A stretch of DNA of 25,018 bases from Candidatus Blackallbacteria bacterium (GCA_051715345.1 JBPXJQ010000004.1:1-25018), one strand, 5' to 3'. Shown: positions 1 to 20,145, numbered from the stretch's first letter. The notes: generated by a model from the sequence alone, not told the origin. Translations and numbers: made by a program.

Positions 1-168
1 TTGGCAATTTCAAAATCCACCTGAAGAATCTCATTTTTCCATGCACAGCAATCAACATCATGCCTTAAACGAATGGGCGAACCTGCGCAGCCGGGTTTTC
101 AGCATTCAAAATACCACCCACTACTTTTTGCAGCGTTTTTACACGCCCTCTCCGAAAAAAACGACACC

Positions 169-1524
169 ATGAAAACAAAGGCTTTTTCGCTTGTTGTTAT
201 TGTGCTTGCTCTCAGCGCCTGTAGCTCCAATTCTCTCAGTCCAGCGACTACTCCCACAGCCTCTCCCACGGTCGTGCTCTCTCCCAGCGCATCCCCAGCA
301 ACAGTTACACTCACCCGCCTCACCAAAGGCCCTGCCAACCTGCCCCTGCGCGACGACCTGCTGCTCTGGAGCAGCCAATTGCAAAAGCTCGTCCAACTCA
401 CGGGCCTGAGCCCGCCTGCTGCGGCCCGGCTTTACGCCTATGCCGGGATCGCCATGCACCTGGCGCTCAATCCCGAAACCCGTCTGCAAGACAAATTAAT
501 CGGCCTCAAAGCTTTGCCAGAAGCACCAGCGAAGATCGACCCACGCCTGTATTTACACGCGACGCTCAACACGCTTTTGCCCGAAGTCATTTTGGCCACC
601 TCCCGGCAGCGCCAGCTCTTGCAAGAGATCGACTTGGCCCAGCGCAAAGCCCTCGATTTTCAAACCGCCGAAGCCAAACAGGCTTTGGAATCAGGCCAAA
701 AACTGGGGCAGCATTTGGCCCAGTGGGCCCGCGAAGATGGCTATTTACGCACCCGCAGCTTGACGTATACCCCGCCGCCGCGCAGCCAGAATCCCGCCTT
801 TTGGGGCCCAACAGCCCCCAGCCAAAAGGCTTTGGAGCCCTATTGGGGCACATTGCGGCCTTTTGTATTGCCCGAAGCCAAAACCTGCCACACGCCGCCC
901 AAGGTCAGCTTTAGCACGGCTGCGGATTCACCCTTTTTAAAAGAGGCCCGCGAAGTGCTTGAAACCGGGCAAACGAGGACTCCCGAGCAGACGGCCATTG
1001 CACGCTGGTGGGCCGATAATCCGGGTGAATCGCCCACGCCGCCAGGGCATTGGTTGGCACTGGCAGCGCAATTGCTCAAAGAGCGCCAAATCGGGGCCTA
1101 TCAGGCGGCTCAGGTTTTGGCTGTTTTGGGGCTGGCGCTGTCCGATGCCTTTGTCTCTTGCTGGAGCAGCAAATTTGAGGTCAATTTACTCCGGCCCGTG
1201 ACGTATATTCAGCAATACCTCGACAGGCCCCAGTGGAAGCCTCTGCTCACCACGCCCCCTTTCCCCGAATACCCATCGGGGCATTCTGTTGGCTCGGGGG
1301 CCGCAGCTGAGGTTTTAGAAGCCTTGCTGGGCCCTGGCCCGTTTACAGACCAGACCCATGTCTTGCGCGGGCAAAAAGCACGCAGCTTCGCCAGTTTTCG
1401 CGCAGCGGCCGACGAAGCGGGCATTTCACGCTTGTATGGCGGCATTCACTACCGCGATGCCATCGATCAGGGCTTGGCACAGGGGCGCTGTGTGGGGCAG
1501 GCTGTGATGAATCGGCTGGAGTAA
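169..1524 (+). CDS. PAP2-superfamily (acid phosphatase / vanadium-dependent haloperoxidase-like) lipoprotein
   Basis: ORF 73..1524. An internal ATG at 169 gives MKTKAFSLVVIVLALSAC, a classic lipoprotein signal with an LSAC lipobox. PAP2 motifs are present: K-x6-RP (KFEVNLLRP), PSGHS, and SRLYGGIHYRD. I saw no obvious Shine-Dalgarno sequence. Confidence 0.8.
   Translation: MKTKAFSLVVIVLALSACSSNSLSPATTPTASPTVVLSPSASPATVTLTRLTKGPANLPLRDDLLLWSSQLQKLVQLTGLSPPAAARLYAYAGIAMHLALNPETRLQDKLIGLKALPEAPAKIDPRLYLHATLNTLLPEVILATSRQRQLLQEIDLAQRKALDFQTAEAKQALESGQKLGQHLAQWAREDGYLRTRSLTYTPPPRSQNPAFWGPTAPSQKALEPYWGTLRPFVLPEAKTCHTPPKVSFSTAADSPFLKEAREVLETGQTRTPEQTAIARWWADNPGESPTPPGHWLALAAQLLKERQIGAYQAAQVLAVLGLALSDAFVSCWSSKFEVNLLRPVTYIQQYLDRPQWKPLLTTPPFPEYPSGHSVGSGAAAEVLEALLGPGPFTDQTHVLRGQKARSFASFRAAADEAGISRLYGGIHYRDAIDQGLAQGRCVGQAVMNRLE
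1305..1524 (+). repeat. Direct repeat copy A: the 3' 220 bp of the PAP2 CDS, repeated at 3189..3408
   Basis: By eye, this 220-bp block aligns without gaps to 3189..3408 with about 21 mismatches, roughly 90 % identity. Confidence 0.85.
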
Positions 1525-1539
1525 AGTTGAATGCGACAA

Positions 1540-3093
1540 TCAAAGCGCATCCACCAGCACATCAAAACCAACAATATTACGGCTCTCCCGGCTAAATTCG
1601 ATCCCAATCAGGGTGATTTCAATTCCTGGCGCTCTGTATTTTTCGGCGTAGCCTTTGTCAATTAACTGTTGCAACGCTTGGCCCGTGGAACTGCCTTCTA
1701 TGACTTTGAATTCAAACAGGTAAACACGGTTGTCCAATTTGAGGCTGAGGTCAATCCGACCATGGTTCGTGATGTCCTCTGGCTGTGCATCGAGCCCCAG
1801 AGCGGCCAATTGACTATAAAACACGCTGGCATAATGCCCTTCAAATTCCGCTATGGGATTTCGCCGATACCATTCATAGGGAATACTGGCAAACAAAGCA
1901 AAAACGCTCTGTTGTAGGGCCTCCAGATCGTGTGCTTCTAGCGCTGCTTCTAAACGGTTTCGAGCAACAAAAGCAGGTTGGGCTTCTGGCCCATACAAGG
2001 GTAGAATTGAGTCATTTAAAGCCATTTCCACTTCGCGATTGGGATAGCCCAAAATATATGTCCAGGTTCCTGAACGGGATTGTTTAACTTCGTGAAAAGT
2101 CAAATACCCAGCTTGCCACAACACAGCCTCTGGAGCCATATGCTCCACATCAAAACTCGACAGAATCGCTTCATTGGCTTCCCGGCGCATCAAATCTGGC
2201 GTAAACCAATTTTTTCGGGCCAATAACTCAATCAGAAATGTGGGGGAACCTGTTTCAAACCAATGTGATTTAAAGACGCGTTTTTGAAAGAGTAGCAAGA
2301 GATCATATGGGTTGTAGACCGCTTCGCCGGTCCAATTATAGCCATTGTACCAATGCCGAATTTTTTCGCGATTGAGGGCTTTTATTTCAGTTGCAAAGAT
2401 TGTATCTACATCTCTGTCTGTATAGCCACAAATAGCAGAGTATTCTGCATCTACAGTAATATCGTTGAGGTTATTCAGGCCTGAGAATAAACTGAGTTTG
2501 GAGAATTTACTCACGCCCGTGATAAACACAAACTTGATATGAGCATCACTGTCTTTGAGCACCGAATAAAAGCTGCGCAAGGCCTCACGCATCTCACGTG
2601 CAATCTCGGAATGGGTGATATTGTCCAGAATAGGCTTGTCGTATTCGTCAATCAGGACAACCACACGTTGTGCGCTTTGGTGATGAATGTTCTGGATGAG
2701 TCGTTTGAAACGACTGGGAATATCTGGCAAATGTTCGGTGATGTTCCAGGCCGTTTCATACCCCTCCAATTGTTCGTGGATAGCGGCTTCGAGGGCGGAT
2801 AAGTGTTTGTGCACACCGGCTCCAAAACTGAGTCGAATGACAGGGTACTTCACGGACCAGTCCCAGTGATTTTCGGCGTACAGTCCTGCAAACAGAGCAC
2901 GGTTGACCTCAAACAACTCTTTGAGCGTATCCAGAAACAAACTCTTGCCAAAGCGCCGGGGTCGCGACAGAAAATAATGGCTGCCCTCTGCGATTAATTG
3001 CAGGGCCAGTGGGGTTTTGTCTACATAATAACAATTCTCTTCACGCAGTTTGGCGAAGGTTTGAATGCCGATTGGCAATTTTTTGCGCGTCAT
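1540..3093 (-). CDS. AAA-ATPase-like domain protein with a C-terminal PD-(D/E)XK nuclease-fold domain (PF09820 + PF08011-type architecture)
   Basis: 517-aa ORF. The N-terminus IGIQTFAKLREENCYYVDKT is typical of the predicted AAA-ATPase family. A P-loop (RPRRFGKS) and a Walker B motif (VVVLIDEYD) are present. The C-terminus carries GRIDLSL...LFEFK, a D...ExK nuclease motif. The gene is visibly lower in GC (about 37-45 % in sampled 60-mers) than its flanks (about 60-67 %). Confidence 0.75.
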   Translation of the reverse strand: MTRKKLPIGIQTFAKLREENCYYVDKTPLALQLIAEGSHYFLSRPRRFGKSLFLDTLKELFEVNRALFAGLYAENHWDWSVKYPVIRLSFGAGVHKHLSALEAAIHEQLEGYETAWNITEHLPDIPSRFKRLIQNIHHQSAQRVVVLIDEYDKPILDNITHSEIAREMREALRSFYSVLKDSDAHIKFVFITGVSKFSKLSLFSGLNNLNDITVDAEYSAICGYTDRDVDTIFATEIKALNREKIRHWYNGYNWTGEAVYNPYDLLLLFQKRVFKSHWFETGSPTFLIELLARKNWFTPDLMRREANEAILSSFDVEHMAPEAVLWQAGYLTFHEVKQSRSGTWTYILGYPNREVEMALNDSILPLYGPEAQPAFVARNRLEAALEAHDLEALQQSVFALFASIPYEWYRRNPIAEFEGHYASVFYSQLAALGLDAQPEDITNHGRIDLSLKLDNRVYLFEFKVIEGSSTGQALQQLIDKGYAEKYRAPGIEITLIGIEFSRESRNIVGFDVLVDAL

Positions 3094-3188
3094 GGTTTGT
3101 GGTCCTTTGGGGCCGTGGCAGTGGGTTCACAGGGATTGCCCTTATACCGATTATAACAGGGGGTTATCTGGCCAAGACAAAAAAGTGA

Positions 3189-3408
3189 AGCCGAGGTCTT
3201 AGAAGCCTTGCTGGGATCTGGGCAATTTACAGACCAGACCCATGTCTTGCGCGGGCAAAAAGCGCGCAGCTTCGCCAGTTTTCGCGCAGCGGCTGACGAG
3301 GCGGGCATTTCACGCTTATATGGCGGCATTCATTACCGCGATGCCATCGATCAGGGCTTGGCACAGGAGCGCTGTGTGGGGCAGGCTGTGTTCAACCGCT
3401 TAAACTGA
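3189..3408 (+). pseudogene. Orphan 3' fragment of a PAP2 homologue (direct repeat copy B). It encodes the last 66 codons, including the SR-x5-H-x2-D catalytic motif and a stop codon
   Basis: ORF 3208..3408 translates to ...FTDQTHVLRGQKARSFASFRAAADEAGISRLYGGIHYRDAIDQGLAQERCVGQAVFNRLN, against ...QGRCVGQAVMNRLE at 1524. It has no 5' part, no ATG and no RBS. Confidence 0.75.
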
Positions 3409-3428
3409 AACGCTGAAGTATTTAGATC

Positions 3429-3458
3429 TTTACAAGAAACCGGATTAAATGTTAAAAT
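3429..3458 (+). promoter_or_regulatory. Candidate sigma70-like promoter TTTACA-N18-TAAAAT for the rhodanese/P450 pair
   Basis: TTTACA at 3429-3434 and TAAAAT at 3453-3458, about 32 nt upstream of the ATG at 3490. The spacing is inferred by eye. Confidence 0.3.
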
Positions 3459-3466
3459 TATATTAA
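3452..3466 (+). promoter_or_regulatory. Shared 15-mer TTAAAATTATATTAA, copy 1, 23 nt upstream of the rhodanese lipoprotein start
   Basis: Exact 15/15 match to 12444..12458. Confidence 0.5.
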
Positions 3467-3489
3467 ATTCAAGTTAATCCGAGGTTCCC

Positions 3490-3960
3490 ATGTCCTTTTT
3501 AGCCAAAACCCTTTCTGCAGCATTGGCCACTCTGGCCCTGACGGCTTGTGCCTCTCAACCCATGCTGATGCCTTCAGCCAGCCGCATGCCTGCCGCCTTG
3601 CAGTCCATGCGTGCCCAAACCAATTTTAAGCCCCAGGCCGTGGTGACCATTTCTCCCCAAGAGGCCCATGATTGGGTCATGGATCCCCAATCCCAATGGC
3701 TGGTGCTGGATGTGCGTACCCCCGAAGAATTTGCCCAGGGTCGCCTCAAAAATGCCACCTTGATGAATTTTTATGATCCGGATTTTAAAACCAAACTCGA
3801 AGACATGAACCGCCACCAGCCCACGATTTTGTATTGTCGCAGTGGCAATCGCAGCGGCCAGGCCTTGGAAATCATGCGCGCACTGGGCTTTAAAAATGTC
3901 TACGAAGTGCGCGGCGGCATTCTCGCTTGGCAAGCCGCGGGCTTTCCCGTGGTTAAATAA
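3490..3960 (+). CDS. Single-domain rhodanese (sulfurtransferase) lipoprotein
   Basis: The signal and lipobox MSFLAKTLSAALATLALTAC are present. The rhodanese fold includes the active-site Cys loop CRSGNRS. An RBS GAGG lies upstream. Confidence 0.8.
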   Translation: MSFLAKTLSAALATLALTACASQPMLMPSASRMPAALQSMRAQTNFKPQAVVTISPQEAHDWVMDPQSQWLVLDVRTPEEFAQGRLKNATLMNFYDPDFKTKLEDMNRHQPTILYCRSGNRSGQALEIMRALGFKNVYEVRGGILAWQAAGFPVVK

Positions 3961-3983
3961 TTAGAACCTGAAAAAAACCGCCC

Positions 3984-5327
3984 ATGAAAACCATGCGTCC
4001 CCCAGGGCCACCCGCTTGGGAATCGGCCCGGACGCTGCAGCGCTTTCGCAGGAACCGACTTGAATTGTTTTCCTCGTTGGCAGCGGAATACGGGGACCTT
4101 GTCTATTATTATATGGGCACACAGCCCATTTGCCTGGTGACAGACCCGGCCCTGATCAAACAGATTTTGACCGTGGATCACCGCCAATTTAAAAAAGGCC
4201 GCCTGCTGGAATTGGCCAAAGACATGTTGGGAGAGGGCCTGCTCACCAGCGAGGGCGAGTTTCATGCCCGCCAACGCCGGATTATTCAGCCCCTTTTTCA
4301 CCGCCAGATGATTCGGGCCTATGGCGAGACCATGGTCGAGCAGGGCAGCCGTCTGCGCGAGCGCCTGCAAGCGGGCCAGGTGCTGGACATGGCCCAGACC
4401 ATGATGCAATTGACCTTGGCGATTGTCGGCCAAACCCTTTTTGATGCCGATGTCGAAGGGGAGGCCACCGAAGTCGGGGCAGCGATGCACACCGTGCTCG
4501 ACATGATCAATCTGATGGGCAATCCTCTGGCCCTGTTGGCCCGCAAGTTCAATATTCCCAATCCCACCCGCCAGCGTTTTTTGGCCGCCAAAACCCTTTT
4601 GGACAGCACCATCGATGGCATCATTGCCGATCACCGCAGTGGCAAAAGCACCCGCCATGATCTGATCGGAACTTTGCTCACGGCCCGCGACACCGAAGGT
4701 GACGGCCAAGGCATGTCGGATTTGCAAATCCGACACGAAGCGCTCACGTTGTTTATGGCGGGGCATGAGACCACCGCCAATGCCCTGGTCTGGACCTGGT
4801 ACCTGCTCTCTGAGCATCCCAGGGTGGAGGCCCTTTTGCAGCGCGAACTCCAAGCTGTGTTGGGCGATCGCCCGCCCACGGTTGATGACCTGCCCCACTT
4901 GGTTTATACCCGCCAGATCATGACCGAGGCCATGCGTCTCTATCCCCCCGCTTGGATTCTCGGCCGCCGCGTCTTAAATGACTATGCCATCGGCACATAC
5001 ACCCTGCCTGCAAATTGTGTGGTGTTGATCAGTCAACAGATCGTCCACCGCAGCCCGCGTTGGTTTAGCGACCCAGAGCGTTTCTTACCCGAACGCTGGA
5101 ACGACGATCTGCGCCAGCAGATGCCCAAATTTGCCTATTTCCCTTTTGGAGGTGGGCCGCGCAATTGCATTGGCGAGGCCTTTGCCTGGATGGAAGGAAT
5201 GCTCTTGATTGCCACGTTGGCTCAGAAATGGCGCTTTCGGCTGGTGCCGGGCCATCCGGTCGAGCCAGAACCGCTGATCACCCTGCGGCCCAAGTTTGGC
5301 CTGCAGATGCGGATCGAAGCGAATTAG
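3984..5327 (+). CDS. Cytochrome P450 monooxygenase
   Basis: Heme-binding signature FPFGGGPRNCIG, I-helix AGHETT, and ExxR (EAMR). The gene lies 24 bp downstream of the rhodanese gene with no terminator between them. Confidence 0.9.
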   Translation: MKTMRPPGPPAWESARTLQRFRRNRLELFSSLAAEYGDLVYYYMGTQPICLVTDPALIKQILTVDHRQFKKGRLLELAKDMLGEGLLTSEGEFHARQRRIIQPLFHRQMIRAYGETMVEQGSRLRERLQAGQVLDMAQTMMQLTLAIVGQTLFDADVEGEATEVGAAMHTVLDMINLMGNPLALLARKFNIPNPTRQRFLAAKTLLDSTIDGIIADHRSGKSTRHDLIGTLLTARDTEGDGQGMSDLQIRHEALTLFMAGHETTANALVWTWYLLSEHPRVEALLQRELQAVLGDRPPTVDDLPHLVYTRQIMTEAMRLYPPAWILGRRVLNDYAIGTYTLPANCVVLISQQIVHRSPRWFSDPERFLPERWNDDLRQQMPKFAYFPFGGGPRNCIGEAFAWMEGMLLIATLAQKWRFRLVPGHPVEPEPLITLRPKFGLQMRIEAN

Positions 5328-5356
5328 TTAGCGTTTTAGTTAGCGCTTAGTTTAGG
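5325..5356. repeat. Tandem about 12-bp repeat (TAGTTAGCG[T/C]TT, two copies plus a partial one) in the convergent gap
   Basis: The sequence tagttagcgttt tagttagcgctt agtttagg contains stop codons in every frame. It sits between the P450 stop (5327) and the stop of the minus-strand gene (5347). Confidence 0.5.
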
Positions 5357-6258
5357 GGCGAAAGCACAACCATGCGGCGGTAAGTGGGGTCGCCCCCAGC
5401 GGGCAAGCGGGACTCCAGTACTTCGCGTTTGTACTGTTGCATTTGGCTTTGGGCTGTGGTGGTGACCGTTGTGCTCACGCCGTTGTACACCGCTTTCCAA
5501 TTGACATCCACACCCATTTTGCCAGCATCGGCCAAGGCGGCAACCACCACCGCTTGGGTGCCCAGACCGGGCACTTTGGCAGCCACAATCACGGAGGCAC
5601 TGGCAGCCACGAGTCCGAGCCCCATTTTGGTAAAGCTCTTTAAATTGGGGTCGACCCAGAAATTGTGAATGTCTTTTCCGGCAATGGCCACATCCATGGC
5701 GGCAACGCCGACATTTAAGACTGAACCCACACGGCCCAGGGCCTGACTGCCGCGGGTCAAGACAGACCCCGCTTGGCCCACATGTTCCGCCAACAATTTG
5801 CTCAAGGTGCCCACACTGGTGGTGGCACCCTTGGTGCTGTTGATCAGGCCTTTGAGGTTTTCGGGATTGGGATTTTCAAGACTTTTATCCAGGTTTGTGC
5901 CAAACGACTGCACCGAAGCCACAGCCCCCAAAGGGGCACTGACATTGCCCAAGACCTGTTGAACTTGGCCACGGGTCAATTGTTCGCCGAGATCTACAGC
6001 GGCTTTGAGATTGGCCGCATTGACATCCCCTTTGCTCAAGCGGCTGATCTGCTCAATTTTGGCCACGGTGCCCAGGGCTTCTTGGGCTTCAGTGCCTGCC
6101 ACGCCGGTTGACAGCACTTTTTGGGTGGCTGCTTTGGCCTCATTCAGGGCTTTGAGATTTTCTTCGGGCAAGGCCTGAAGATTTTTCACAGGCTGAAAGA
6201 GGGCTCCACTGCGGTGGAGTTGGGTCAGCTCGGAATAATTGTTTGTGATGTTTCCCAT
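5347..6258 (-). CDS. Hypothetical alpha-helical protein with a C-proximal hydrophobic helical hairpin
   Basis: 303 aa with no signal peptide. It has repeated G-x-V/L-G-rich amphipathic segments. Two hydrophobic helices of about 17 aa each, GLGLVAASASVIVAAKVPGLGTQAVVVAALADAG, are separated by a KVPGLG turn. Confidence 0.55.
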   Translation of the reverse strand: MGNITNNYSELTQLHRSGALFQPVKNLQALPEENLKALNEAKAATQKVLSTGVAGTEAQEALGTVAKIEQISRLSKGDVNAANLKAAVDLGEQLTRGQVQQVLGNVSAPLGAVASVQSFGTNLDKSLENPNPENLKGLINSTKGATTSVGTLSKLLAEHVGQAGSVLTRGSQALGRVGSVLNVGVAAMDVAIAGKDIHNFWVDPNLKSFTKMGLGLVAASASVIVAAKVPGLGTQAVVVAALADAGKMGVDVNWKAVYNGVSTTVTTTAQSQMQQYKREVLESRLPAGGDPTYRRMVVLSPLN

Positions 6259-6378
6259 GGTCTCTGTTTTTTGGTCAAATATTGATTGCAGTCTTAGTTT
6301 AAATATATGGCCTGGGTGCCCAAAGCTGACTTAAGAGGACGTTAAGAATGGATTATTTTTTGACAAAATTTAGTTTGG

Positions 6379-6936
6379 TTACAGGCTTTCAGACCATTGG
6401 GCTGTGCGTTTTATTCGCTTTAAATCATACCCTTTGGCCTGAATTCGGCTGAGAATGGCTGAATACTGCACGGGGTCCATCTCTGGCGTGCGGCTGAGGA
6501 TCCAGAGATAATTGCGGCTGGGGTGCCCCACCACGGCATAGCTATAATTGCTGTCGAGATCGATCACCCAATAATCCCCAGCAAAGGGCCCAAAGAATGA
6601 AACTTTAAGTTTGGCCTGATTCGATGAGTCTACCACGGTCGCCCGACCTTCGATCCGCTCGAGGCGATTTTCTTTTGGCAAATAACATTGGTTCCAGACC
6701 TTGACCGATTTGTCGGTATTCAGGGTATAGGTGGCAGTGGTGCCCACACAATCGGGGCTCTGAAAAGGGGCGGAGATACTGGCAATTTCGAACCAGAGGC
6801 CGAGATAAAGAGAGAGATCGACGTTTTCTACGGTTTGCAAATCTTCGCTTTGGGCAAACGCAGGTGAATCTGCCTGCCCAAATGATAAGCCAAGCGTCAA
6901 GCAAAGACAGGCAAGTGCCTGAACAGATCTTTTCAT
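6379..6936 (-). CDS. blc: Outer-membrane lipocalin Blc
   Basis: Signal and lipobox MKRSVQALACLCLTLGLSFGQA. The stretch AKLKVSFFGPFAGDYWVIDLD...NYLWILSRTP closely matches the E. coli Blc core ALKVSFFGPFYGGYNVIALD...DYLWILSRTP. A GxW motif (LGLWFEIA) is present. An RBS GAGG lies 10 nt upstream of the ATG at 6936. Confidence 0.9.
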   Translation of the reverse strand: MKRSVQALACLCLTLGLSFGQADSPAFAQSEDLQTVENVDLSLYLGLWFEIASISAPFQSPDCVGTTATYTLNTDKSVKVWNQCYLPKENRLERIEGRATVVDSSNQAKLKVSFFGPFAGDYWVIDLDSNYSYAVVGHPSRNYLWILSRTPEMDPVQYSAILSRIQAKGYDLKRIKRTAQWSESL

Positions 6937-7023
6937 GGTTGGAACCTCGGTCTGTATTGAGAGCATCAGCATCTCTGTTTGAGTTTTAACACTTGCTTCA
7001 GCTTAAAGGGAAGCCAATTGCCA

Positions 7024-7035
7024 AGGGCATGCCCT
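7024..7035. promoter_or_regulatory. Perfect 12-bp palindrome AGGGCATGCCCT about 90 nt upstream of blc
   Basis: The sequence is self-complementary. It lies in the blc promoter region, just downstream of the stop of the 7067..8095 gene, and has no T-tract. Confidence 0.3.
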
Positions 7036-7066
7036 CTTCTCTAGGCCAAACCCCTAAGCCAGACCG

Positions 7067-8095
7067 CTAGGCCAGTCCGCTTTGCTTGTATCGGCCCGAT
7101 TGGGCCACATAGTCAAAATTGGGCAACGTACTCGGCTCCCCAATCGCTTCACGCAAGAGTCCCAAGACCTGCCCTGAAAGCGGATTGGTTTTGCCCAGGG
7201 CGATGGGGATGTCTTCGCTGCCATAACCAGGCCCGACATTAAAACGGGTGATCAAAAATCCAGTGGCATCATGGCGCATGGCATGGCGCAGGCCAGAGTC
7301 AAAACGGCCCACCAGCGGCACTTCTTTGGCACCGGGGCCCGGAATGCCCCCGGTGGGATTCATGGCCATGGCCTCTTCGGCCGAGATCACCCCACCCGTC
7401 AGCGCTTCGACAATAGCCCCATATTGTTTGTGCTGGTTGCAGCCATAATAGCCCTTTTCAATGGCCAAGGGCAGATCGCGCACGGCCTCTGGGTGTTTAT
7501 ACGCGTTTTCTTTTAAAGTGTGGATTTCTTGGGGGGTCATTTTGGCAAAATCGCTCATCACCAAGACGGCGTCATCTGCCAGGCTGCGGTCAAATTCCGA
7601 TTCTGGCACGGCAATATTGCGTGCGGCCAAGGCTTTAAAATCCGTGAGAATTCCACTTTTTTCAATCGCTGAAGCATCGCGCAGAATGCTTGGGAAACGG
7701 CAGCCATGCACGTCTTCTGAGCGCATCAAAGTTTGAACCAGGGCCTGGTCACTTAAATGCGACAAAGACACACCGCCCGTGGGCCCTGTACCACTGATGA
7801 CTGCCAGAGCATGGGCCAAGCCTCTGGGAATGGGAATTGTTGAGGCGTTTTCAAGCATTTTTTCGGAAGAGGTATTTTCGATTTTGTGGTGAATTTCTGC
7901 ATTTGCAGGCAATGAGTCCTGTTCCGCAGCAGGCGTTGAAAAGGCCTTGGGATTCGCTTTTGCCACTGGGGTCTCACTGGCATGGGCCTGAGGGGCAGCG
8001 GTTTTTTCTGGGCCAGAAGGCGGTTTGATGGCAGGGGGAGCTGAGACGCTGAGGGCCTGAGGAACAGGAGAGGGGGTGCCAGAAACGAGACTCAT
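7067..8095 (-). CDS. Hypothetical protein with a Pro/Ala-rich N-terminal region (about 90 aa) and an unrecognised C-terminal domain
   Basis: 342-aa ORF with no signal peptide and no clear RBS. I recognise no conserved motifs. Confidence 0.55.
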   Translation of the reverse strand: MSLVSGTPSPVPQALSVSAPPAIKPPSGPEKTAAPQAHASETPVAKANPKAFSTPAAEQDSLPANAEIHHKIENTSSEKMLENASTIPIPRGLAHALAVISGTGPTGGVSLSHLSDQALVQTLMRSEDVHGCRFPSILRDASAIEKSGILTDFKALAARNIAVPESEFDRSLADDAVLVMSDFAKMTPQEIHTLKENAYKHPEAVRDLPLAIEKGYYGCNQHKQYGAIVEALTGGVISAEEAMAMNPTGGIPGPGAKEVPLVGRFDSGLRHAMRHDATGFLITRFNVGPGYGSEDIPIALGKTNPLSGQVLGLLREAIGEPSTLPNFDYVAQSGRYKQSGLA

Positions 8096-8163
8096 CTGTG
8101 CATTTTGCTCTTTTTTATTTGTATTTAATTCAACTGATAATTATCTTAGCATTTTGCATGGGC

Positions 8164-8195
8164 AAAATCTATGTTTAAAATCTATGTTTAAAAAA
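8164..8195. repeat. Tandem direct repeat AAAATCTATGTTT x2 between the terminator and the start of the 7067..8095 gene
   Basis: The sequence aaaatctatgttt aaaatctatgttt aaaaaa is a candidate promoter or operator repeat. Confidence 0.5.
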
Positions 8196-8222
8196 CAAGG
8201 CCCGTGAAATAATTCACGGGCC
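8191..8222 (-). terminator. Rho-independent terminator for the minus-strand operon ending at 8245
   Basis: A 10-bp stem GGCCCGTGAA / TTCACGGGCC with loop ATAA lies at 8199-8222. It is followed on the minus strand by TTGTTTTTT. Confidence 0.75.
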
Positions 8223-8244
8223 TCAAAGACAATTAAATCCCTGA

Positions 8245-9258
8245 TTAACTGGGACTGGGTTGGGGTATCATATCCGGTTGAACCGTGGGTTTAAGCGTGG
8301 GTTTGGCCGAAGAACCGCTTTCTGCCGTCGAGGTGGGCGCCGGTGCCTCTTTGGCCGTCTCGGGTATAATCGTGCTAAAGCCGATTCCCACCAGCAGAAT
8401 CACCAGACAGGTCCACTGTAATTTGGAGATATGCTCTTTTAAGATCATGGCAGCAAAGCCCAAAGTCACCAACGGGTAAGCGCCGGTAATCGGAGCCACC
8501 AGCGAGGCCGGACCTGTGCTGGAGGCAATAATCACGCCCAAATCTCCCCCGGCCATCATGGCCATCGGCAAAAACGAATGCAAAAAAGGCGTTTGAGCCA
8601 CCAATTGCACCTGACCATCAGCTGACTTTTTGCTGTGACCTTTGAGCACACCATACAGACCCAGGGTCATCAGGCCGCCCATGGTCGCATATATGGCCAT
8701 ATTCGACTCACTCGCGCCGGGCAAGGAATAAGAATAGCGCAACAGGGTCTGAGCCGCACCCCAACAGGTTAGAGCCGTTAAAGCCAGCGGAATCCAGCGC
8801 CGATTGGTGACTTTGCCATCGGGATCGGGAGGCGAATAAGACAGGCCCAAACAGCCGAAGATCACCATGGCGACGCCCATGTACTGCTGCCCAATTAAGG
8901 ACTCTTTGAGAAAGATCTGGGCAAAGAGCAAGGTCAGCGCCGGGTAAGCGGCTGAGAGTGTGCCCACAATTGTGATTGGGCCGAGTACAATCGACTCAAA
9001 ATAGAGGATCCAGCCCAACCCGTCGAGAATATACGCCAAGATGCCCACCAGCATAAAGCTCATGCCCTCTGCGGTAAATAGCGGTGGATGGGGCATGAAG
9101 ATAAAATAGCCCAAATTGACCACGGTGCGGGCCAAAATGAGAAAGAGGCAGAATTTGGCGGGGGGAACGTCTTCACTCCATTTTTTGACCAAACCCTGGC
9201 CAAAGCCGTAGAGAAAAAGCGTAATAAACGCCGGAATCATCCAGATTGAATTTGTCAT
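8245..9258 (-). CDS. Polytopic membrane protein, EamA/DMT-superfamily-like transporter with a Pro/Ser/Thr-rich C-terminal tail
   Basis: About 10 hydrophobic segments arranged as two repeats. Its start is 7 bp from the ALDH stop, consistent with an operon. Confidence 0.65.
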   Translation of the reverse strand: MTNSIWMIPAFITLFLYGFGQGLVKKWSEDVPPAKFCLFLILARTVVNLGYFIFMPHPPLFTAEGMSFMLVGILAYILDGLGWILYFESIVLGPITIVGTLSAAYPALTLLFAQIFLKESLIGQQYMGVAMVIFGCLGLSYSPPDPDGKVTNRRWIPLALTALTCWGAAQTLLRYSYSLPGASESNMAIYATMGGLMTLGLYGVLKGHSKKSADGQVQLVAQTPFLHSFLPMAMMAGGDLGVIIASSTGPASLVAPITGAYPLVTLGFAAMILKEHISKLQWTCLVILLVGIGFSTIIPETAKEAPAPTSTAESGSSAKPTLKPTVQPDMIPQPSPS

Positions 9259-9265
9259 AGCGGGT

Positions 9266-10747
9266 CTAATACCAGCCCATGGGCCCTTCGGTCAGGTTGA
9301 TATGCAGCTGTTTGGTTTCGAGGAAATTCTCGACGCCATATTTGCCCAATTCACGGCCCGTGCCACTCTGTTTATAACCACCCCAAGGTGCTTCACAATA
9401 GGTGGGCTGCATGTGGTTGACCCAGAAAATCCCCGCCCGCACCGCTTTGGAGACCCGCATCGCTTTGAAGATATCGCGGGTCCAGACAGCCCCCGCCAAG
9501 CCATAAGGGGTGTCATTGGCAATCGCAATGGCCTCTGCCTCGTCTTCAAAGGGGATCACGGCAGCCACCGGCCCAAAGATCTCCTCACGCGCAATGGTCA
9601 TCTGGTTATTGACCTGGGCAAAAATGGCAGGGCTGACAAAAAAGCCCTTGGCCAAATCGCCGCCGAGGCGTTCGCCACCAAAGACCAGTTGAGCGCCTTC
9701 GGCTTTGCCTTTGGCGATATACCCCAGCACGCGGTTGAGATGTTCTTCGCTGACCAAAGCGCCGAGTTTGTTTTCGGGGTTCATGCCCGGACCAACCTGG
9801 ATGGTTTTACATTTTTCGACCATGGCGGCGACAAATTTTTCGTAAATGGATTTTTGCACCAAAATCCGTGAGCCCGCTGAACAGACCTCTCCCTGATTGA
9901 CAAAACAGGCAAAGAGCGCGTTTTCGACTCCGGCTTCAAAGTCGCAATCTTCGAAGAAAATATTGGGCGATTTGCCGCCGAGTTCGAGGCTGACCTTTTT
10001 TAAATTGCTGTCTGCAGCTGCTTTCATGATCAGACGGCCCACTTCGGTCGAACCTGTAAAAGCCACTTTGTCGACCTCGTGATTTTCCGCCAATTCTGCG
10101 CCGACTTCTTCGCCCAGGCCGGTGACAATATTGACCACCCCTTTGGGCAATTCTTCAATGCCATCAAGGATTTTTGCCAATTCCAGCACACTCAATGGGG
10201 TGGTTTCGGCAGGTTTGAGCACCATGGTACAGCCTGCGGCCAGGGCCGGGGCCAATTTCCAGGCAGCCATCAGCAGGGGATAATTCCAGGGCACAATCAA
10301 GCCGCACACACCCACAGGCTCTTTGATCGACATGCTCACCGCATTGTCGGGCACAGGATTGACCTCGCCGTAGATCTTGGTGGCCCAACCACCAAAATAT
10401 TCAAAACAGGTAGCAGCATCCCCCAAATCGTATTCGGATTCAAACAGGGGTTTGCCCATGTTCAGGGTTTCGAGTTCGGCCAGTTCTGCGGCTTTTTCGC
10501 GCAGGGCAGCGGCAATTTTAAACAACACAGTGGCGCGTTGAATGCCTGTGGCCTGTCGCCATTCACCAGAGTCAAACGCTGCACGGGCGGCACTGATGGC
10601 GGACTGCATGTCTTGGCGGGTGGCTTGGGGAACTTGGGCCAGCACCTCTCCATTGGCGGGGTTGATAATATCCATCAACACAGAACCCGCCCCGGTGGTA
10701 AATTCACCCCCAATATACATCGGCACAGTTGTTAGCTCAGTATTCAT
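9266..10747 (-). CDS. NAD(P)+-dependent aldehyde dehydrogenase
   Basis: ALDH Glu active-site motif LELGGKSP, Cys active-site motif FVNQGEVCSAGSR, and FTGSTEVG. I prefer the start at MNTELTT, the ATG at 10745-10747, over the longer ORF starting at 10822. Confidence 0.9.
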   Translation of the reverse strand: MNTELTTVPMYIGGEFTTGAGSVLMDIINPANGEVLAQVPQATRQDMQSAISAARAAFDSGEWRQATGIQRATVLFKIAAALREKAAELAELETLNMGKPLFESEYDLGDAATCFEYFGGWATKIYGEVNPVPDNAVSMSIKEPVGVCGLIVPWNYPLLMAAWKLAPALAAGCTMVLKPAETTPLSVLELAKILDGIEELPKGVVNIVTGLGEEVGAELAENHEVDKVAFTGSTEVGRLIMKAAADSNLKKVSLELGGKSPNIFFEDCDFEAGVENALFACFVNQGEVCSAGSRILVQKSIYEKFVAAMVEKCKTIQVGPGMNPENKLGALVSEEHLNRVLGYIAKGKAEGAQLVFGGERLGGDLAKGFFVSPAIFAQVNNQMTIAREEIFGPVAAVIPFEDEAEAIAIANDTPYGLAGAVWTRDIFKAMRVSKAVRAGIFWVNHMQPTYCEAPWGGYKQSGTGRELGKYGVENFLETKQLHINLTEGPMGWY

Positions 10748-13243: not shown

Positions 13244-14518
13244 ATGAAAGAGGTTGTTATTGTTGCCGGCCTGCGCACTCCCTTTGTCAAAGCAGGTGGG
13301 GCATTTAAAGATTTGGCGGCCTATGATTTAACCGCCCGGCTGATTCGCGAAATGATGCTCAGATTGGATTTTCCCACTGATACCATCGAAGAAGTGATCA
13401 TTGGCAATGTGATTCAAGGTGTTGAAACTGCCAATATGGCGCGCATTTCAGCCATCTTGGGCGGTCTGCCCAACCATGTGCCCGCTTATACGGTCAACCG
13501 CAACTGCGCATCCGGCATGGAGGCCATCAGCCAGGCCTTCGACAAAATCCGCCATGGCCATGCCAAAGTGATCCTGGCAGGTGGCGCTGAGTCCATGAGC
13601 AGCATTCCCGTTTTCAGCTATAGCTCAGAACTCACAGATATCCTGGTCGGTGCCGCCAAAGCCAAAACCCCGGCCCAGCGCCTGCAATTGCTCTCACAAA
13701 TGCGGCCCCAATTCCTCAAACCCAACGTGATCAACCAAAACGATCCCTTGATTGACATGACCATGGGCCAAACTGCTGAAATCCTGGTGCGCGACTTTGG
13801 CATCACCCGTCAAGAACAAGACGAATTTGCCCTGCGCAGCCACCTGCGCGCGGTGGGAGCCAAAGCCAAATTGGCCGAAGAGATTCTGCCCATTTTAATT
13901 GCCGACAATGGCAAAGGCACAGCAGTGACCGAAGACATTGGCCCCCGTGAAGACGCCAAATTGGAGAGTTTGCTCAAACTCAAACCGGCTTTCGACAAAG
14001 AGTTTGGCTCGGTCACAGCAGGCAATGCCTCACCGATCACCGATGGTGCAGCCGTGGTGCTGGTGATGGAAGCTGAACTGGCCAAATCCATGGGTCTGGA
14101 GCCGCTGGGCTATATCCGCAGTTTTGCCTATGCCGGGCTCGAAGCCCAGCGCATGGGACTCGGCCCCTCGTATGCCACCCCCAAAGCATTGGAATTGGGC
14201 AAAGCAAAATTCTCAGATCTCGAACTCTATGAATTTAACGAGGCTTTTGCCGCCCAAGTAATCGCCAACGAACGGGCCTTCGCCTCAAAAGACTTTGCAG
14301 CCAAACTTGGTCTGAAAGCCCCGATCGGTGAGATTGACCGCGAGCGTTTGAATGTCAATGGCGGAGCCATTGCCTTGGGGCATCCCCTCGGGGCCTCTGG
14401 CGCCCGACTGGTGCTGACCCTGCTCAAAGAAATGGGGCGGCGCGATCTCTCAATGGGCCTGGCCTCGCTCTGTATTGGTGGCGGCCAAGGCGCAGCCTTT
14501 ATTCTGGAGCGGAAATAG
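13244..14518 (+). CDS. fadA: 3-ketoacyl-CoA thiolase / acetyl-CoA acetyltransferase (FadA/FadI-like)
   Basis: Thiolase motifs NRNCASGMEAI, NVNGGAIALGHPLGASGARL and CIGGGQGAAF. The RBS AAGAGG lies before the ATG at 13244. Confidence 0.9.
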   Translation: MKEVVIVAGLRTPFVKAGGAFKDLAAYDLTARLIREMMLRLDFPTDTIEEVIIGNVIQGVETANMARISAILGGLPNHVPAYTVNRNCASGMEAISQAFDKIRHGHAKVILAGGAESMSSIPVFSYSSELTDILVGAAKAKTPAQRLQLLSQMRPQFLKPNVINQNDPLIDMTMGQTAEILVRDFGITRQEQDEFALRSHLRAVGAKAKLAEEILPILIADNGKGTAVTEDIGPREDAKLESLLKLKPAFDKEFGSVTAGNASPITDGAAVVLVMEAELAKSMGLEPLGYIRSFAYAGLEAQRMGLGPSYATPKALELGKAKFSDLELYEFNEAFAAQVIANERAFASKDFAAKLGLKAPIGEIDRERLNVNGGAIALGHPLGASGARLVLTLLKEMGRRDLSMGLASLCIGGGQGAAFILERK

Positions 14519-14528
14519 GAGCAAGCCC

Positions 14529-16958
14529 ATGACTGAAAAAAACACCCCCACCGAGTTGACTGAAAATCCTGTGGAATTACAGGCTGTGGAAGAGACCGCG
14601 ACAGACAAAGAGGCGGCAGCCCCTGCCAAGAAGCCCAAAGCGGCTCCGCGCAAAAGTCCCAAAAAAGTGGCTGAAGACACTGAAACAAATGATGAGTCGT
14701 CATCAGAATCGACTCCCCCATCATCCCCGACAAAGGAAGTTCCGCCCATGACCACAGATCTTCAGGAAAAAGCACCTGTCAGCACCTCCGAAGGCCAATA
14801 CCTCAGCCTGGAACTCAACAGCGACGGGATCGCCACGGTTTGGTTCGATACCCCTGGCAAAAAAGTGAATTTACTCTCCCCGGCCATGTTGGATGCCATT
14901 GAATCCGTGATGGATGAAATTTCAGCCAATCCTGCCATCAAAGCCGTGATCTTTGCCAGCCGCAAAGACGATAATTTTATCGCAGGTGCCGATTTGGCCA
15001 GCATGGTTTCGGGCCATTTTGACCTCGACAAAGCGGTGGCCTTTGGCAATCGCGGCCGCGAAGTCTTTCAGCGCTTGGCTGAATTGGAAGTGGCAACCAT
15101 TGCCTGCATACATGGTTCTTGCCTTGGCGGTGGTTTGGAATTGGCCCTGGCCTGCGATTACCGCTTGGCCTCCAATCACCCCAAAACCAAATTGGGTCTG
15201 CCCGAAGTGCAACTAGGCATTTTGCCTGCCTGGGGCGGTGTTTCTCGCCTGCCGCGGATGTTGCCCCTGCCTGCAGCCCTCGATTTGATGTTGACTGGCA
15301 AACAGGTGCCTGCCAAAAAAGCCCGTTCCTTGGGCTTGGTACACCTGGCTCCGCCGCAAGAAGTGCTCTACCAGACGGCTCACAAATTGGCCAAAGATGT
15401 GCTGGCGGGAGAAATTGGCTATTTAACTGCCAAACAGCCCAAAAGCAGTTTGCTCGACAAGGCCCTGAGCAATTTGGCTGTGGGCCAAAATTTGGTTTTC
15501 AAACAGGCCCGCAAAGGCGTTCTCGATAAAAGCAAAGGCTTTTATCCCTCGCCGCTCAAGATTCTCGAAACAGTGCAAAACAGTCTCAACCTGCCCCTTT
15601 ACGAGGCCTTTAAACTTGAGGGTCAGGCCTTTAAATACCTGCTTGAACGCAGTGAAACTGCCAATTTGATGAATCTCTTCTTCGTTAACCAGGACCTCAA
15701 TAAGGTGCCCGAACTCGAAGGCAAAGACGTTAAAGCCCGCAAGGTCAAAATGATGGGCGTCTTGGGAGCGGGTTATATGGGCGCTGGTATTGCCCAGGTC
15801 TCCAACGCCAAAGACATCGAGATCCGCCTCAAAGACATGAATTACCCCGCGCTCTTGGCTGGCATCAAAGCCATTCAAAAAGGCTATGGTTCGCTGCTCA
15901 AACGCCGCCGGCTGACCGCCAAACAGGTAGCCGACAAAATGCGCCGAGTGACGCCCACCATCGACTATTCAGGCTTTAAACACACCGATCTGGTGATCGA
16001 AGCTGTGGTCGAAAAAATGGAGGTCAAAAAAGCAGTTTTTAGTGAATTGGAACAGCATATTGGCCCCAACACTATTTTGGCAACCAATACCTCGGCCCTG
16101 TCAATCAACGAAATGGCCGCTGCCACAGCCCGCCCTGACCGCTTTATCGGGTTGCATTTCTTTGGCCCTGTGCAAAAAATGCCCCTGGTAGAAGTGATCT
16201 TGGGTGAAAAGACCAGCGACGAGACCCTGGCTACGGTACTTCAATACGTGCGTGGCATTGGCAAAACCCCCGTGGTGATTCGCAAAGACACACCGGGTTT
16301 TGTGGTTAACCGCATTTTGGCAATCTACGGCAACGAAGCCGGTCTGTTGCTCGAAGAAGGGGGCGATATGACCACCATCGATCGCCTGATGACCGACTTT
16401 GGTATGCCAATGGGCATTTTTGAAGTGATTGATCTTGCCGGCGTCGACGTGGCTTGGCATACAGCCCAGAGTGTGCGTCCGCTGTTTGAGTCCCGCCCTG
16501 GATTTCGGATGAGCAAAGTCATGGAGCGCCTCTACACGGATCAGCGCCTGGGCCAGAAAAATGGCAAAGGCTTTTATATCCACGCTGGCAAAGAGGCCGT
16601 GCCGGACCACCGCTATATCCAACAGGTGGTCAATGAACTCAGTCCCGAAAGCGAACGCCGCCAATTGACAGGAGAAGAGATCCGCGATCGCCTCGTGCTC
16701 AGCATTCTGAATGAATCTGCGCTCTGTTTGCAAGAAGGCCTGGTGGCCCGAGCAGGTGAAATCGACATGGCGATGTTGATGGGAACCGGTTTTCCCCCCT
16801 TCCGGGGCGGTCCTCTGCGCCTGATTGATCAACAGGGCATTCAATTTATTGTCAATCAGCTGGAATATTACGCTGAAACCCGTGGTGAACGTTTTGCCCC
16901 CTGCACCCTGCTCAAAGAGATGGCGCAGACTGGCAAGAAGTTCTACCCCTTGTTCTGA
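14529..16958 (+). CDS. fadB: Fatty-acid oxidation multifunctional alpha subunit (enoyl-CoA hydratase plus 3-hydroxyacyl-CoA dehydrogenase) with an N-terminal low-complexity extension
   Basis: Crotonase domain (GIATVWFD...FIAGADL) and HAD domain (MMGVLGAGYMGAGIAQV). GGAG lies 7 nt before the ATG at 14529, directly after the thiolase stop. An alternative start at ATG 14748 (SD AAGGAAG) would remove the roughly 75-aa K/A/P/E/S-rich segment. Confidence 0.85.
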   Translation: MTEKNTPTELTENPVELQAVEETATDKEAAAPAKKPKAAPRKSPKKVAEDTETNDESSSESTPPSSPTKEVPPMTTDLQEKAPVSTSEGQYLSLELNSDGIATVWFDTPGKKVNLLSPAMLDAIESVMDEISANPAIKAVIFASRKDDNFIAGADLASMVSGHFDLDKAVAFGNRGREVFQRLAELEVATIACIHGSCLGGGLELALACDYRLASNHPKTKLGLPEVQLGILPAWGGVSRLPRMLPLPAALDLMLTGKQVPAKKARSLGLVHLAPPQEVLYQTAHKLAKDVLAGEIGYLTAKQPKSSLLDKALSNLAVGQNLVFKQARKGVLDKSKGFYPSPLKILETVQNSLNLPLYEAFKLEGQAFKYLLERSETANLMNLFFVNQDLNKVPELEGKDVKARKVKMMGVLGAGYMGAGIAQVSNAKDIEIRLKDMNYPALLAGIKAIQKGYGSLLKRRRLTAKQVADKMRRVTPTIDYSGFKHTDLVIEAVVEKMEVKKAVFSELEQHIGPNTILATNTSALSINEMAAATARPDRFIGLHFFGPVQKMPLVEVILGEKTSDETLATVLQYVRGIGKTPVVIRKDTPGFVVNRILAIYGNEAGLLLEEGGDMTTIDRLMTDFGMPMGIFEVIDLAGVDVAWHTAQSVRPLFESRPGFRMSKVMERLYTDQRLGQKNGKGFYIHAGKEAVPDHRYIQQVVNELSPESERRQLTGEEIRDRLVLSILNESALCLQEGLVARAGEIDMAMLMGTGFPPFRGGPLRLIDQQGIQFIVNQLEYYAETRGERFAPCTLLKEMAQTGKKFYPLF

Positions 16959-17010
16959 TTTCGCCGTGCAGTCTGGAACCCTAGTCGAGTTTTTGCAAAA
17001 AAGCGACCTG

Positions 17011-18975: not shown

Positions 18976-20145
18976 TTCTTTGACCTTTTGCATAAAGGCT
19001 TCGATTGCAGGGTTGCGTGAAATTTTCCAGGCCAAATTGAGAAAATAGAGTGAATGATTGAGATCCCGCACCAAACTATAGAGGTAGCCCAGGCCAAAAT
19101 AGGCTTCGTGACGTTCTTTGTGAAGACTAACGGCCTCTAAAAAAACCTCAATCGCCTGCTGCAGAGGACTGGTATTGACAAAGCCCGAATCCACGACTTT
19201 ATCGATACAGGCAAAGCCCAAATCGAGGTATTCCTGATAGGACTTTTTCTCCTGGTTGAGTACAATGCCCATGCTGTTGCGAACCAGCGACTTGCCCGCG
19301 CCCATATCAAAGCGAACTTCCAGTTCTGCCCCAGATTTTTGGGCCGAACTGACCTGGTCAATCGGCTCTTCAATTGGCTCCTCTCTTGGGTCTTTGCGGC
19401 TGGGAGGGAGTTCAAAAGAAATGATCTGAAAACCTTCCTCGGCGGAAGGAGAAAGCGCTGCTTGGGGTTTGCTGGGATCAATCGTGGGCTCTGCAGCCAC
19501 CAGCGCTGGCAAAAAGGGCTGCAAGAGGCGAAGACTCTCTTGCCAGAAGCCTTGCTCTTGAGGCATGACCACGGGTGTGGCTTCTGTCAACTCTTCGGGC
19601 AGGGCCCAGTCGCTGGGAGCAGGAGCCAAGCCCTGTGCCAAACTGCGAAAAGCGTCATACAGAGGTTTTTGCCAACGGCCAAAGCGCTGATTGCGAGAGG
19701 ACTCAAGAAAAACCTGTAAATCTGGGGGATAGAGTCCATACCAGGCATCACTGACACTCTCCCAATTTTCAAGACTGTTGGGCGGGAGTTTAAACAAGCC
19801 GATTAAAGGCGGCCAATGGGGCAACCGCTCTTGGCTTTGGGCCTGTAAAAGAGATAGAGTGACTGTCTGAGCCTGTTTTTGCAGGGCCTTGATCTGATTC
19901 TCAATCCCCTGTCTAAAAACCGGAGAAAGGGTTTGCTGACGTCGGTTTTCGAGCCCCGTCACTTTGGCTTTGAGCTGCTCCAATTGCAGACGCAGGGGAC
20001 GGCTTTTGGAAACCTGAGCAACGGGTCTTTGTAAGGGACGAACAGCTGTGGTAGCGGGTGGTTTAGGCGCTGAGGGAGAGGAGCCGCTTGCAGACACAGG
20101 ACGGGCTGAGCGTATGCTCATCCTTTGCTGCATGGGTTGCTGCAT
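18958..20145 (-). CDS. Hypothetical protein with a low-complexity MQQPMQQ N-terminus, a coiled-coil region and a TPR-like C-terminus
   Basis: The ORF runs to 20232. I chose the start at 20145 (MQQPMQQRM) because AAGGAG lies 9 nt upstream. The 3' end overlaps the convergent RNB gene by 18 bp. Confidence 0.5.
   Translation of the reverse strand: MQQPMQQRMSIRSARPVSASGSSPSAPKPPATTAVRPLQRPVAQVSKSRPLRLQLEQLKAKVTGLENRRQQTLSPVFRQGIENQIKALQKQAQTVTLSLLQAQSQERLPHWPPLIGLFKLPPNSLENWESVSDAWYGLYPPDLQVFLESSRNQRFGRWQKPLYDAFRSLAQGLAPAPSDWALPEELTEATPVVMPQEQGFWQESLRLLQPFLPALVAAEPTIDPSKPQAALSPSAEEGFQIISFELPPSRKDPREEPIEEPIDQVSSAQKSGAELEVRFDMGAGKSLVRNSMGIVLNQEKKSYQEYLDLGFACIDKVVDSGFVNTSPLQQAIEVFLEAVSLHKERHEAYFGLGYLYSLVRDLNHSLYFLNLAWKISRNPAIEAFMQKVKESYGLA

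Follow-up and report, generated by a model that had tools for sequence, protein, structure and literature searches.

A strain-variable ATPase-nuclease gene of the DUF1703 family in a PAP2-rhodanese spacer, bracketed by two diverged ends of a host gene

The DNA analysed here, which we call the window, is a stretch of 25,018 nucleotides (nt) from Candidatus Blackallbacteria bacterium (GCA_051715345.1 JBPXJQ010000004.1:1-25018). On its minus strand, at positions 1540-3093 and between a gene for a PAP2 phosphatase and a rhodanese gene, lies a gene encoding a protein of 517 amino acids (aa) that joins an ATPase to a nuclease. An original prediction, made from the sequence alone, had singled this gene out as a candidate single-gene defence or mobility module. 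The features of the locus, in window positions, are the following.

73-1524, plus strand: PAP2 / vanadium-haloperoxidase-like phosphatase gene (PF01569), 483 aa, intact
1305-1524, plus strand: repeat copy A, the PAP2 3' end in use (ending …VMNRLE and a stop codon), contiguous with the full PAP2 open reading frame (ORF)
1525-1539, no strand: gap of 15 nt between the convergent stop codons; 1525-1532 (AGTTGAAT) is native spacer, and the left insert junction is at 1532/1533
1540-3093, minus strand: DUF1703-family ATPase-nuclease gene, 517 aa, intact ORF
1570-1848, minus strand: PDDEXK_9 nuclease domain, aa 416-508, with key residues E418, D448, E461-x-K463 and Q476
2044-2448, minus strand: AAA+ lid and predicted winged-helix module, aa 216-350
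2485-3075, minus strand: AAA-ATPase_like domain (aa 7-203); its Walker A, RPRRFGKS, lies at 2941-2964 and its Walker B, DEYD, inside 2638-2664
3094-3188, minus strand: upstream region carried with the gene, 95 nt; the right junction of the foreign DNA is at 3188/3189
3189-3408, plus strand: repeat copy B, a headless PAP2 3' fragment (ending …VFNRLN and a stop codon) without the 5' part, followed by native spacer and rhodanese
3409-3489, plus strand: native spacer and rhodanese promoter (TTTACA-18-TAAAAT, 3429-3458)

The 517-aa protein clearly belongs to DUF1703, a known family still uncharacterised, which was described in 2007 by Knizewski et al. with the same two-domain architecture and the same RPRRFGKS Walker A motif, and without a function (PMC1913061). 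The predicted pairing of a P-loop NTPase with a C-terminal D...ExK nuclease was borne out by profile searches, in which both Pfam domains scored far above the curated cutoffs: AAA-ATPase_like (PF09820) matches residues 7-203 along its whole profile (1-201) with 228.4 bits against a cutoff of 26.1 (E 1e-67), and PDDEXK_9 (PF08011) matches residues 416-508 with 74.5 bits against a gathering score of 25.5 (E 7e-21). All the motifs that had been quoted are present, namely the non-canonical Walker A RPRRFGKS (aa 44-51, nt 2941-2964), the Walker B VVVLIDEYD (aa 144-152, nt 2638-2664, DEYD being aa 149-152), GRIDLSL, which holds D448 (nt 1741-1761), and LFEFK, which holds E461 and K463 (nt 1705-1719). 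When the protein was aligned with 40 homologues (61-76% identity), these four motifs were invariant, as were residues D448, E461, K463 and Q476, and E418 was at least 90% conserved; variability clusters at aa 81-140, 301-320 and 361-400, and the catalytic cores are nearly fixed. The four nuclease motifs I-IV of DUF1703 (an acidic residue in the first helix, D, ExK, and Q in the second helix) were all found, together with the four-module fold of the family (AAA+ core, small helical domain, helical linker and restriction-endonuclease-like core), and the protein possesses every defining feature of DUF1703 that was tested. No NCBIfam model or equivalog matched the 517-aa protein, and an Rfam scan of the window found no element.

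The gene stands out from its surroundings by composition. Its GC content is 0.465, and 0.483 at third codon positions (GC3), against 0.52-0.59 and 0.51-0.70, respectively, in the fourteen other genes of the window; being also the only gene in the insert, it fits the earlier description as sole cargo of a compositionally foreign insertion. The 95-bp upstream region attributed to it is indeed 95 nt of non-coding DNA (3094-3188), and its placement is convergent with PAP2 as stated, at a measured distance of 15 nt (1525-1539) instead of 16 bp. Absent from the original prediction is a direct repeat that brackets the insert: positions 1305-1514 and 3189-3398 are 92% identical and, followed in frame to the stop codons, the two copies span 220 nt at 90% identity. 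The repeated sequence is the 3' end of the PAP2 gene.

Comparison with relatives provides both empty and occupied versions of the site. The empty site was found at locus L102, whose rhodanese gene is 85% identical: the PAP2 end (…VMNRLN, stop codon TGA) is followed by a 30-nt spacer, the sequence of which includes AACTGAACAGATTCAGCCAGGCCCCTTATTTTGGATCTTTACAGG, and then by the rhodanese promoter. An occupied site was found in L003, from another metagenome-assembled genome (MAG), which is 92% identical to the window over positions 3418-9685, or about 6.3 kb. There, PAP2 is followed by a gene for a 536-aa DUF1703 member and then by rhodanese; this gene lies on the opposite strand relative to the window gene, to which it is about 70% identical at the nucleotide level, and no duplicated PAP2 fragment accompanies it. 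The same arrangement as in L003 was found on three contigs. By blastn the left junctions of the two loci coincide, the homology running through AGTTGAAT (window 1525-1532, L003 9435-9443) and restarting at GTATTTAGAT (window 3418, L003 11192), such that the spacer positions of the two occupants agree within about 2 nt. Two different DUF1703 members have landed in one spacer.

The surroundings of this spacer vary as well. In L095-L101 the rhodanese block lies behind a different left neighbour, homology with the window starting at 3428, at the -35 box of the rhodanese promoter, and in the same genus PAP2 paralogues are found in two other contexts without the ATPase gene (L001 and L002). These differing neighbours and contexts indicate that the region from the PAP2 3' end to the rhodanese promoter is a recombination and synteny breakpoint. 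Since occupancy by the ATPase gene varies among relatives that are about 90% identical, the gene is a strain-variable accessory cassette in the PAP2-rhodanese spacer. Three left neighbours of the rhodanese-P450 block were counted in such relatives (PAP2, PAP2 plus ATPase, and a 212-aa/CxxCxxCC/Wzy_C set); in every relative, homology of the rhodanese block begins at the -35 box (TTTACA), a sharp and recurrent synteny breakpoint.

Which of the two PAP2 ends is the resident one can be read from their tails. Copy A matches L003 in its tail and in the 8 nt past its stop codon, AGTTGAAT. Copy B ends like the empty-site relative L102 (RLN followed by TGA) and has diagnostic variants in common with L003, and it is therefore taken as the resident end; it is presumably non-functional. 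The copies differ at 22 of 220 nt, which amounts to 13 synonymous and 5 non-synonymous codons among 73. As the differences are mostly synonymous, they point to divergence while each copy was part of a working gene. Copies A and B would then be two alleles or paralogues that were brought together; duplication of the PAP2 end in situ followed by decay was rejected on account of the synonymous character of 13 of the 18 differing codons.

At the nucleotide level the PAP2 gene is 92-94% identical to the PAP2 genes of the Sericytochromatia MAGs L001-L003. In sliding windows its sequence (1-1524) is a mosaic: nt 1-256 match an L001-type paralogue only, at 89-99% versus less than 55% for the others (to 282), and downstream of nt 256 the best match switches among L001, L002 and L003. 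This pattern suggests gene conversion among paralogues, or else a chimeric assembly join in the central part, where identity is 98-99%. Neither of these events, nor a larger rearrangement, which is equally conceivable, affects the junctions that adjoin the ATPase gene.

In the upstream region an extended -10-like sequence, TGTTATAAT, lies at 3150-3158 on the plus strand, 54 nt before the ATG of the ATPase-nuclease gene. A consensus promoter scan missed it, the spacer being 19 nt, and we regard it as a candidate promoter. What close family members have in common is the ORF and a TATAAT box only. In L003 (9480-9499), L013 (7984-8003) and L014 (7984-8003) this box stands just 7-8 nt before the ATG, a distance that suggests a leaderless or near-leaderless transcript in these Sericytochromatia members; in L014 the box contains the stop codon of the methyltransferase gene that lies upstream. 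Local alignment of the 95-nt upstream region with the 3' flank of the L003 gene, taken in the same orientation of the locus, gave a score of 20, which was reached by 31 of 1000 shuffles and is not significant.

The question is then how the gene reached the spacer. Two separately evolved PAP2 3' ends as flanks suggest that host recombination, not self-transposition, brought the gene in, and passive acquisition of this kind appears to be the simplest reading of the sequence. A donor from a related lineage would already have carried a family member, in minus orientation, just past the PAP2 stop codon. Its DNA would have recombined homologously within PAP2, and its other end would have been joined illegitimately inside the resident PAP2 gene, at 3188/3189. 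The incoming 3' end (copy A) would thereby have come into use, and the resident one (copy B) would have been pushed downstream as an orphan fragment. Both elements of this scenario have precedents: homology-facilitated illegitimate recombination is a documented mechanism (PMC3240628), and orphaned 3' ends are documented at Rhs and type VI secretion system (T6SS) loci (PMC5361080).

The suggestion that the gene is a mobility module has one point in its favour: the L003 occupant sits at the same position, which speaks for a certain preference for the site. Otherwise it found no support, as no inverted repeats, integrase or transposase (in the 25-kb window) and no tRNA were found around the insert. 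A transposon or insertion sequence was rejected because the insert has neither inverted repeats at its ends nor a short duplication of its target, and no gene for a transposase or integrase, the flank being 220 nt of a host gene that diverged under selection; the tetranucleotide TGAA occurs at both junctions and is too short to count as a target-site duplication. An integrative element targeting tRNA genes or gene 3' ends would account for a duplicated gene 3' end, but there is no recombinase, no tRNA and a single cargo gene. Nor is duplication of a flanking host gene a signature of the family: when left and right flanks were compared by blastn at 59 homologue loci, no other case was found, and the flanking repeats seen at L048, L079, L045, L069, L080, L038 and further loci are what is left of tandem copies, or else intergenic DNA that is shared. 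Recent transposition was set aside because no nearly identical copies turned up in differing contexts; pairs exceeding 85% nucleotide identity were limited to L083/L088, which are the same locus, and a tandem pair within L038.

A search of the PDB with a profile of 41 sequences found no solved structure detectable by sequence, and the architecture was read from an AlphaFold2 model of the 517-aa protein (predicted local distance difference test 78, predicted template modelling score 0.72). The model comprises an α/β core with the P-loop (about aa 1-205), a lid of helices with a β-hairpin/helix module that we read as a winged helix (about aa 216-350), a helical linker (about aa 353-431) and a βββαβ(β) nuclease core (aa 435-515). 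Foldseek matches of the model were Apaf-1 and ORC; the AAA+/winged-helix part resembles ORC/Cdc6, DnaA, clamp loaders and MutS2, and the nuclease domain resembles CinB and CidB, the cytoplasmic incompatibility (CI) factors of Wolbachia. In the predicted fold, an AAA+ module of ORC/STAND-like type is combined with a winged helix and, at the C-terminus, a PD-(D/E)XK nuclease. Judging from fold and motifs, the protein is most likely an ATP-controlled switch or oligomeriser in which a DNA-binding winged helix gates a DNA-cutting domain. The ORC/Cdc6- or STAND-like module with its winged helix would bind DNA or a trigger, ATP binding would cause the AAA+ module to switch or oligomerise, and this switch would license the C-terminal domain for DNA cutting.

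The family is as widespread as had been claimed, with more than 8,000 close homologues of the 517-aa protein, and the literature searched assigns it no function. Clustered at 50% identity, its members form 18,332 groups when E<=1e-3 is allowed and 2,679 when E<=1e-30 is required. Siozios et al. (2019) reported 25 diverged, recombining DUF1703 paralogues in a Cardinium symbiont, again without a function (PMC6387759). Of 72,556 plasmids, 63 carry members of the family, several of these plasmids in multiple copies. No credible phage genome carries the family, as only 32 short, unannotated 'Bacteriophage sp.' contigs from faeces matched, and BFVD held no full-length structural relative; neither result was counted as evidence of a phage origin. 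The surroundings of P0002/P0003 and P0005, three close Sericytochromatia loci, consist mainly of metabolic or housekeeping genes, as in the window.

Metagenome contigs frequently show diverged copies arranged head to tail in tandem arrays, the largest having 5 copies in 13.5 kb (L070); L069 has three copies with spacers of about 30 nt (2930-7509), L038 two copies at 92% nucleotide identity (6001-9125), and other arrays occur at L080 and L059. By analogy, such arrays are reminiscent of diversifying receptor or immune gene clusters. In L048 the gene at 2001-3479, upstream of a family member, appears to encode another uncharacterised ATPase. Pfam AAA_14 is matched by 2 of 111 neighbour proteins, and one of these matches was attributed to the L048 ORF by reading its sequence; the L048 gene may represent a second type of NTPase co-located with DUF1703.

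What the protein does was approached through its neighbours. At about 75 homologue loci, 111 immediate neighbours were compared with 111 control genes at least 3 genes away at the same loci. The PADLOC matches of the neighbours include small numbers of Cas, type I S-subunit, reverse transcriptase and AriA-like proteins, and there is no clear enrichment of the kind expected of defence islands; the control is a weak one, being drawn from the same loci and based on family counts only. The claim of a defence module finds no support in PADLOC, PHROGs or NCBIfam matches, in the metabolic content of the window or in a conserved neighbour. A defence-like role as an ATP-gated nuclease is our best guess. 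The patchy, horizontally moving and tandemly diversified distribution of the family fits genetic conflict, be it defence against invading DNA or an addiction-like function, better than housekeeping; these features of its distribution, taken together with the STAND/ORC-like design of the nuclease, lend moderate support to a conflict or defence-like role. The protein would probably be an ATP-controlled DNA cutter used in such conflict.

Taken as a whole, the explanation that an intact DUF1703 member, present as a strain-variable cassette and acquired by recombination, encodes a predicted ATP-gated nuclease engaged in genetic conflict is one to which we give a little less than an even chance (about 0.45). 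Several observations weigh against it. As regards the arrival of the gene, the recombination scenario was reconstructed from one assembly; no independent assembly showed the donor allele (a minus-orientation ATPase gene lacking the duplicated end) or the junctions of the window itself, and the match of the first 256 nt of PAP2 to a paralogous L001 locus may reflect a complex rearrangement or assembly chimerism upstream. As regards the role in conflict, the window holds only metabolic genes; PADLOC, candidate systems included, gave no match to the 517-aa protein even at E<=1, and PHROGs gave none either. No conserved partner gene was found, the 111 immediate neighbours falling into 116 Pfam families of which none occurs more than 3 times, and the PADLOC families matched by neighbours (165) and controls (112) are of similar kinds, if somewhat more numerous among the neighbours, both sets including a small number of Cas or type I restriction-modification proteins. 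A sensor repeat domain of the STAND type is absent by Pfam from the protein, and the literature that is silent on function also holds no experiment on any DUF1703 member.

The same locus could be explained by selfishness of the gene. A homing-like nuclease gene would cut the empty PAP2-rhodanese spacer and be copied in by repair, the PAP2 duplication being a by-product of aberrant repair. This would agree with the presence, in the window and L003, of two diverged members (about 70% nucleotide identity) that share one spacer position within about 2 nt and are oppositely oriented, with the recurrence of the L003 arrangement on three contigs and the existence of an empty allele in L102, and also with genes that each carry their own -10 box and nothing else, in a family with multiple copies and with expansions in symbionts. 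That one spacer has been occupied twice leaves room for such a reading, at a lower probability than a conflict or defence role, and we hold it to be unlikely: to our knowledge, known homing endonuclease genes have no ATPase, no further case of flanking host-gene duplication was found in 59 testable loci, nearly identical copies were not seen in differing contexts, a single orthologous locus stably houses P0002 and P0003, and the synonymous bias of the repeat divergence fits ordinary recombination with a foreign allele. Moreover, only two occupied alleles are known, and their coincidence may reflect a recombination hot spot, the rhodanese block having three left neighbours. More generally, DUF1703 genes might form a large, unrecognised class of nuclease-driven selfish cassettes that break DNA at preferred intergenic sites; here the nuclease would cut the spacer past the PAP2 stop codon, and repair from an occupied allele would copy the gene in. 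If true, this would explain the two diverged members in opposite orientations at one site and the displaced PAP2 fragment, as well as the synteny breakpoints and the expansions of the family in symbionts, and we consider it a long shot.

Other explanations take the gene or its setting to be something else altogether. A housekeeping or niche factor of DNA metabolism, such as an ORC/Cdc6-like initiator or a repair nuclease that is merely located here, would suit the similarity of the AAA+/winged-helix part to ORC/Cdc6, DnaA, clamp loaders and MutS2 and the strong conservation of catalytic residues; it is made very improbable by the lack of the gene at the orthologous site of close relatives, by a copy number that varies between genomes and is often multiple, and by foreign composition, occurrence on plasmids and the missing NCBIfam equivalog. 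It would take even more to accept that duplication and insertion are assembly artefacts of a MAG with paralogous PAP2 genes, even if the same or related MAGs hold at least two PAP2 paralogues that are 92-94% identical, the PAP2 5' end of the window matches a different type of locus and the window protein is found on one contig only. Between the repeat copies there are differences at 22 of 220 positions, and either copy is joined to unique sequence; assemblers collapse repeats and do not create a diverged, truncated second copy; and the analogous occupied allele of L003 was reproduced in three assemblies. Least probable of all is an effector nuclease that is secreted or directed at a host, a role suggested for the expanded paralogues of Cardinium, whose proteins have been called putative secreted nucleases (PMC6387759). 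The nuclease domain does resemble CinB and CidB of Wolbachia, but the AAA domain is absent from the CI toxins (PMC6387759), the source is apparently a Sericytochromatia MAG from environmental metagenomes, and the N-terminus (MTRKKLPIGIQTF…), as read from the sequence, lies within the conserved ATPase domain (Pfam from residue 7), which leaves no room for a signal peptide.

Some remarks concern the rest of the window. Four ORFs of 303-424 aa have no Pfam domain, at 5347-6258 (minus strand), 7067-8095 (minus), 18958-20232 (minus) and 20383-21549 (plus); for two of these, of 303 and 342 aa, synteny is kept in all relatives examined. As listed, the ORFs for a FadB-like protein (14475-16958) and RNase II (16825-18975) overlap by about 130 nt, and those for thiolase and FadB by about 44 nt. 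These overlaps are probably due to over-extended TTG starts in a mechanical ORF list.

DUF1703 ranks among the larger uncharacterised families of NTPase-nucleases: it has about 18,000 clusters at 50% identity in bacteria and archaea, and in symbionts it is reported to have expanded to as many as 25 copies. The present locus amounts to a clean natural experiment, with one allele that is empty, two that are occupied in different ways and a fragment of a host gene that was displaced, which together define the cassette to the nucleotide as the ORF plus about 95 nt upstream and 7 nt downstream. It also supplies a concrete target sequence with which a site-specific (selfish) nuclease may be distinguished from a non-specific (defence-like) one. 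If either role proved true, thousands of proteins annotated as 'ATP-binding protein' would gain a function.

Among known systems, the Archaeal ATPase family (PF01637-type; PDB 2fna, SSO1545, and 2qen, PABY2304) and ORC/Cdc6 have only 9-13% sequence identity with the 517-aa protein and, unlike it, have no nuclease domain. The Avs/STAND NTPases and the NLR-type immune ATPases carry a C-terminal TPR, LRR or WD sensor that the window protein lacks, and in Avs/STAND proteins the effector is N-terminal, whereas in the window protein it is C-terminal, in a chain of only 517 aa and outside any defence-island context. An antiviral STAND protein of the Avs type was rejected on these grounds, no PADLOC Avs model and no Pfam repeat domain having matched. 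RdrA of the RADAR system has been reported with a PF09820-like ATPase (PMC10952713); it was likewise discarded, as PADLOC gave no RdrA match and the neighbours are PAP2 and rhodanese, not the adenosine deaminase RdrB.

Free-standing homing endonuclease genes resemble the present case in being single nuclease genes with their own promoter, placed between conserved genes and polymorphic for presence and absence at one site. They differ from it in that the window protein is large and has an ATPase domain, and in that the two occupants of the site stand in opposite orientations and are about 30% diverged. A parallel in organisation is offered by the orphaned 3' ends at Rhs, contact-dependent inhibition of growth (CDI) and T6SS loci, where incoming DNA also anchors in the conserved part of a resident gene and brings a new 3' end with cargo, the old 3' end being shifted downstream as a fragment. 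In contrast to those loci, the anchor here is a phosphatase instead of a toxin, just one gene, unrelated and encoded on the opposite strand, makes up the cargo, and one displacement only is seen.

With DUF1703 itself the agreement is complete at the protein level: the two Pfam domains, the length of about 520 aa, the RPRRFGKS Walker A and DEYD Walker B motifs and the E…D…ExK…Q series are those of a family that is multi-copy and horizontally transferred, and we found no difference. What is new is the evidence from the locus, namely a nucleotide-resolved polymorphism between empty and occupied sites, a displaced host-gene end, and a second, diverged member of the family at the same position in the opposite orientation.

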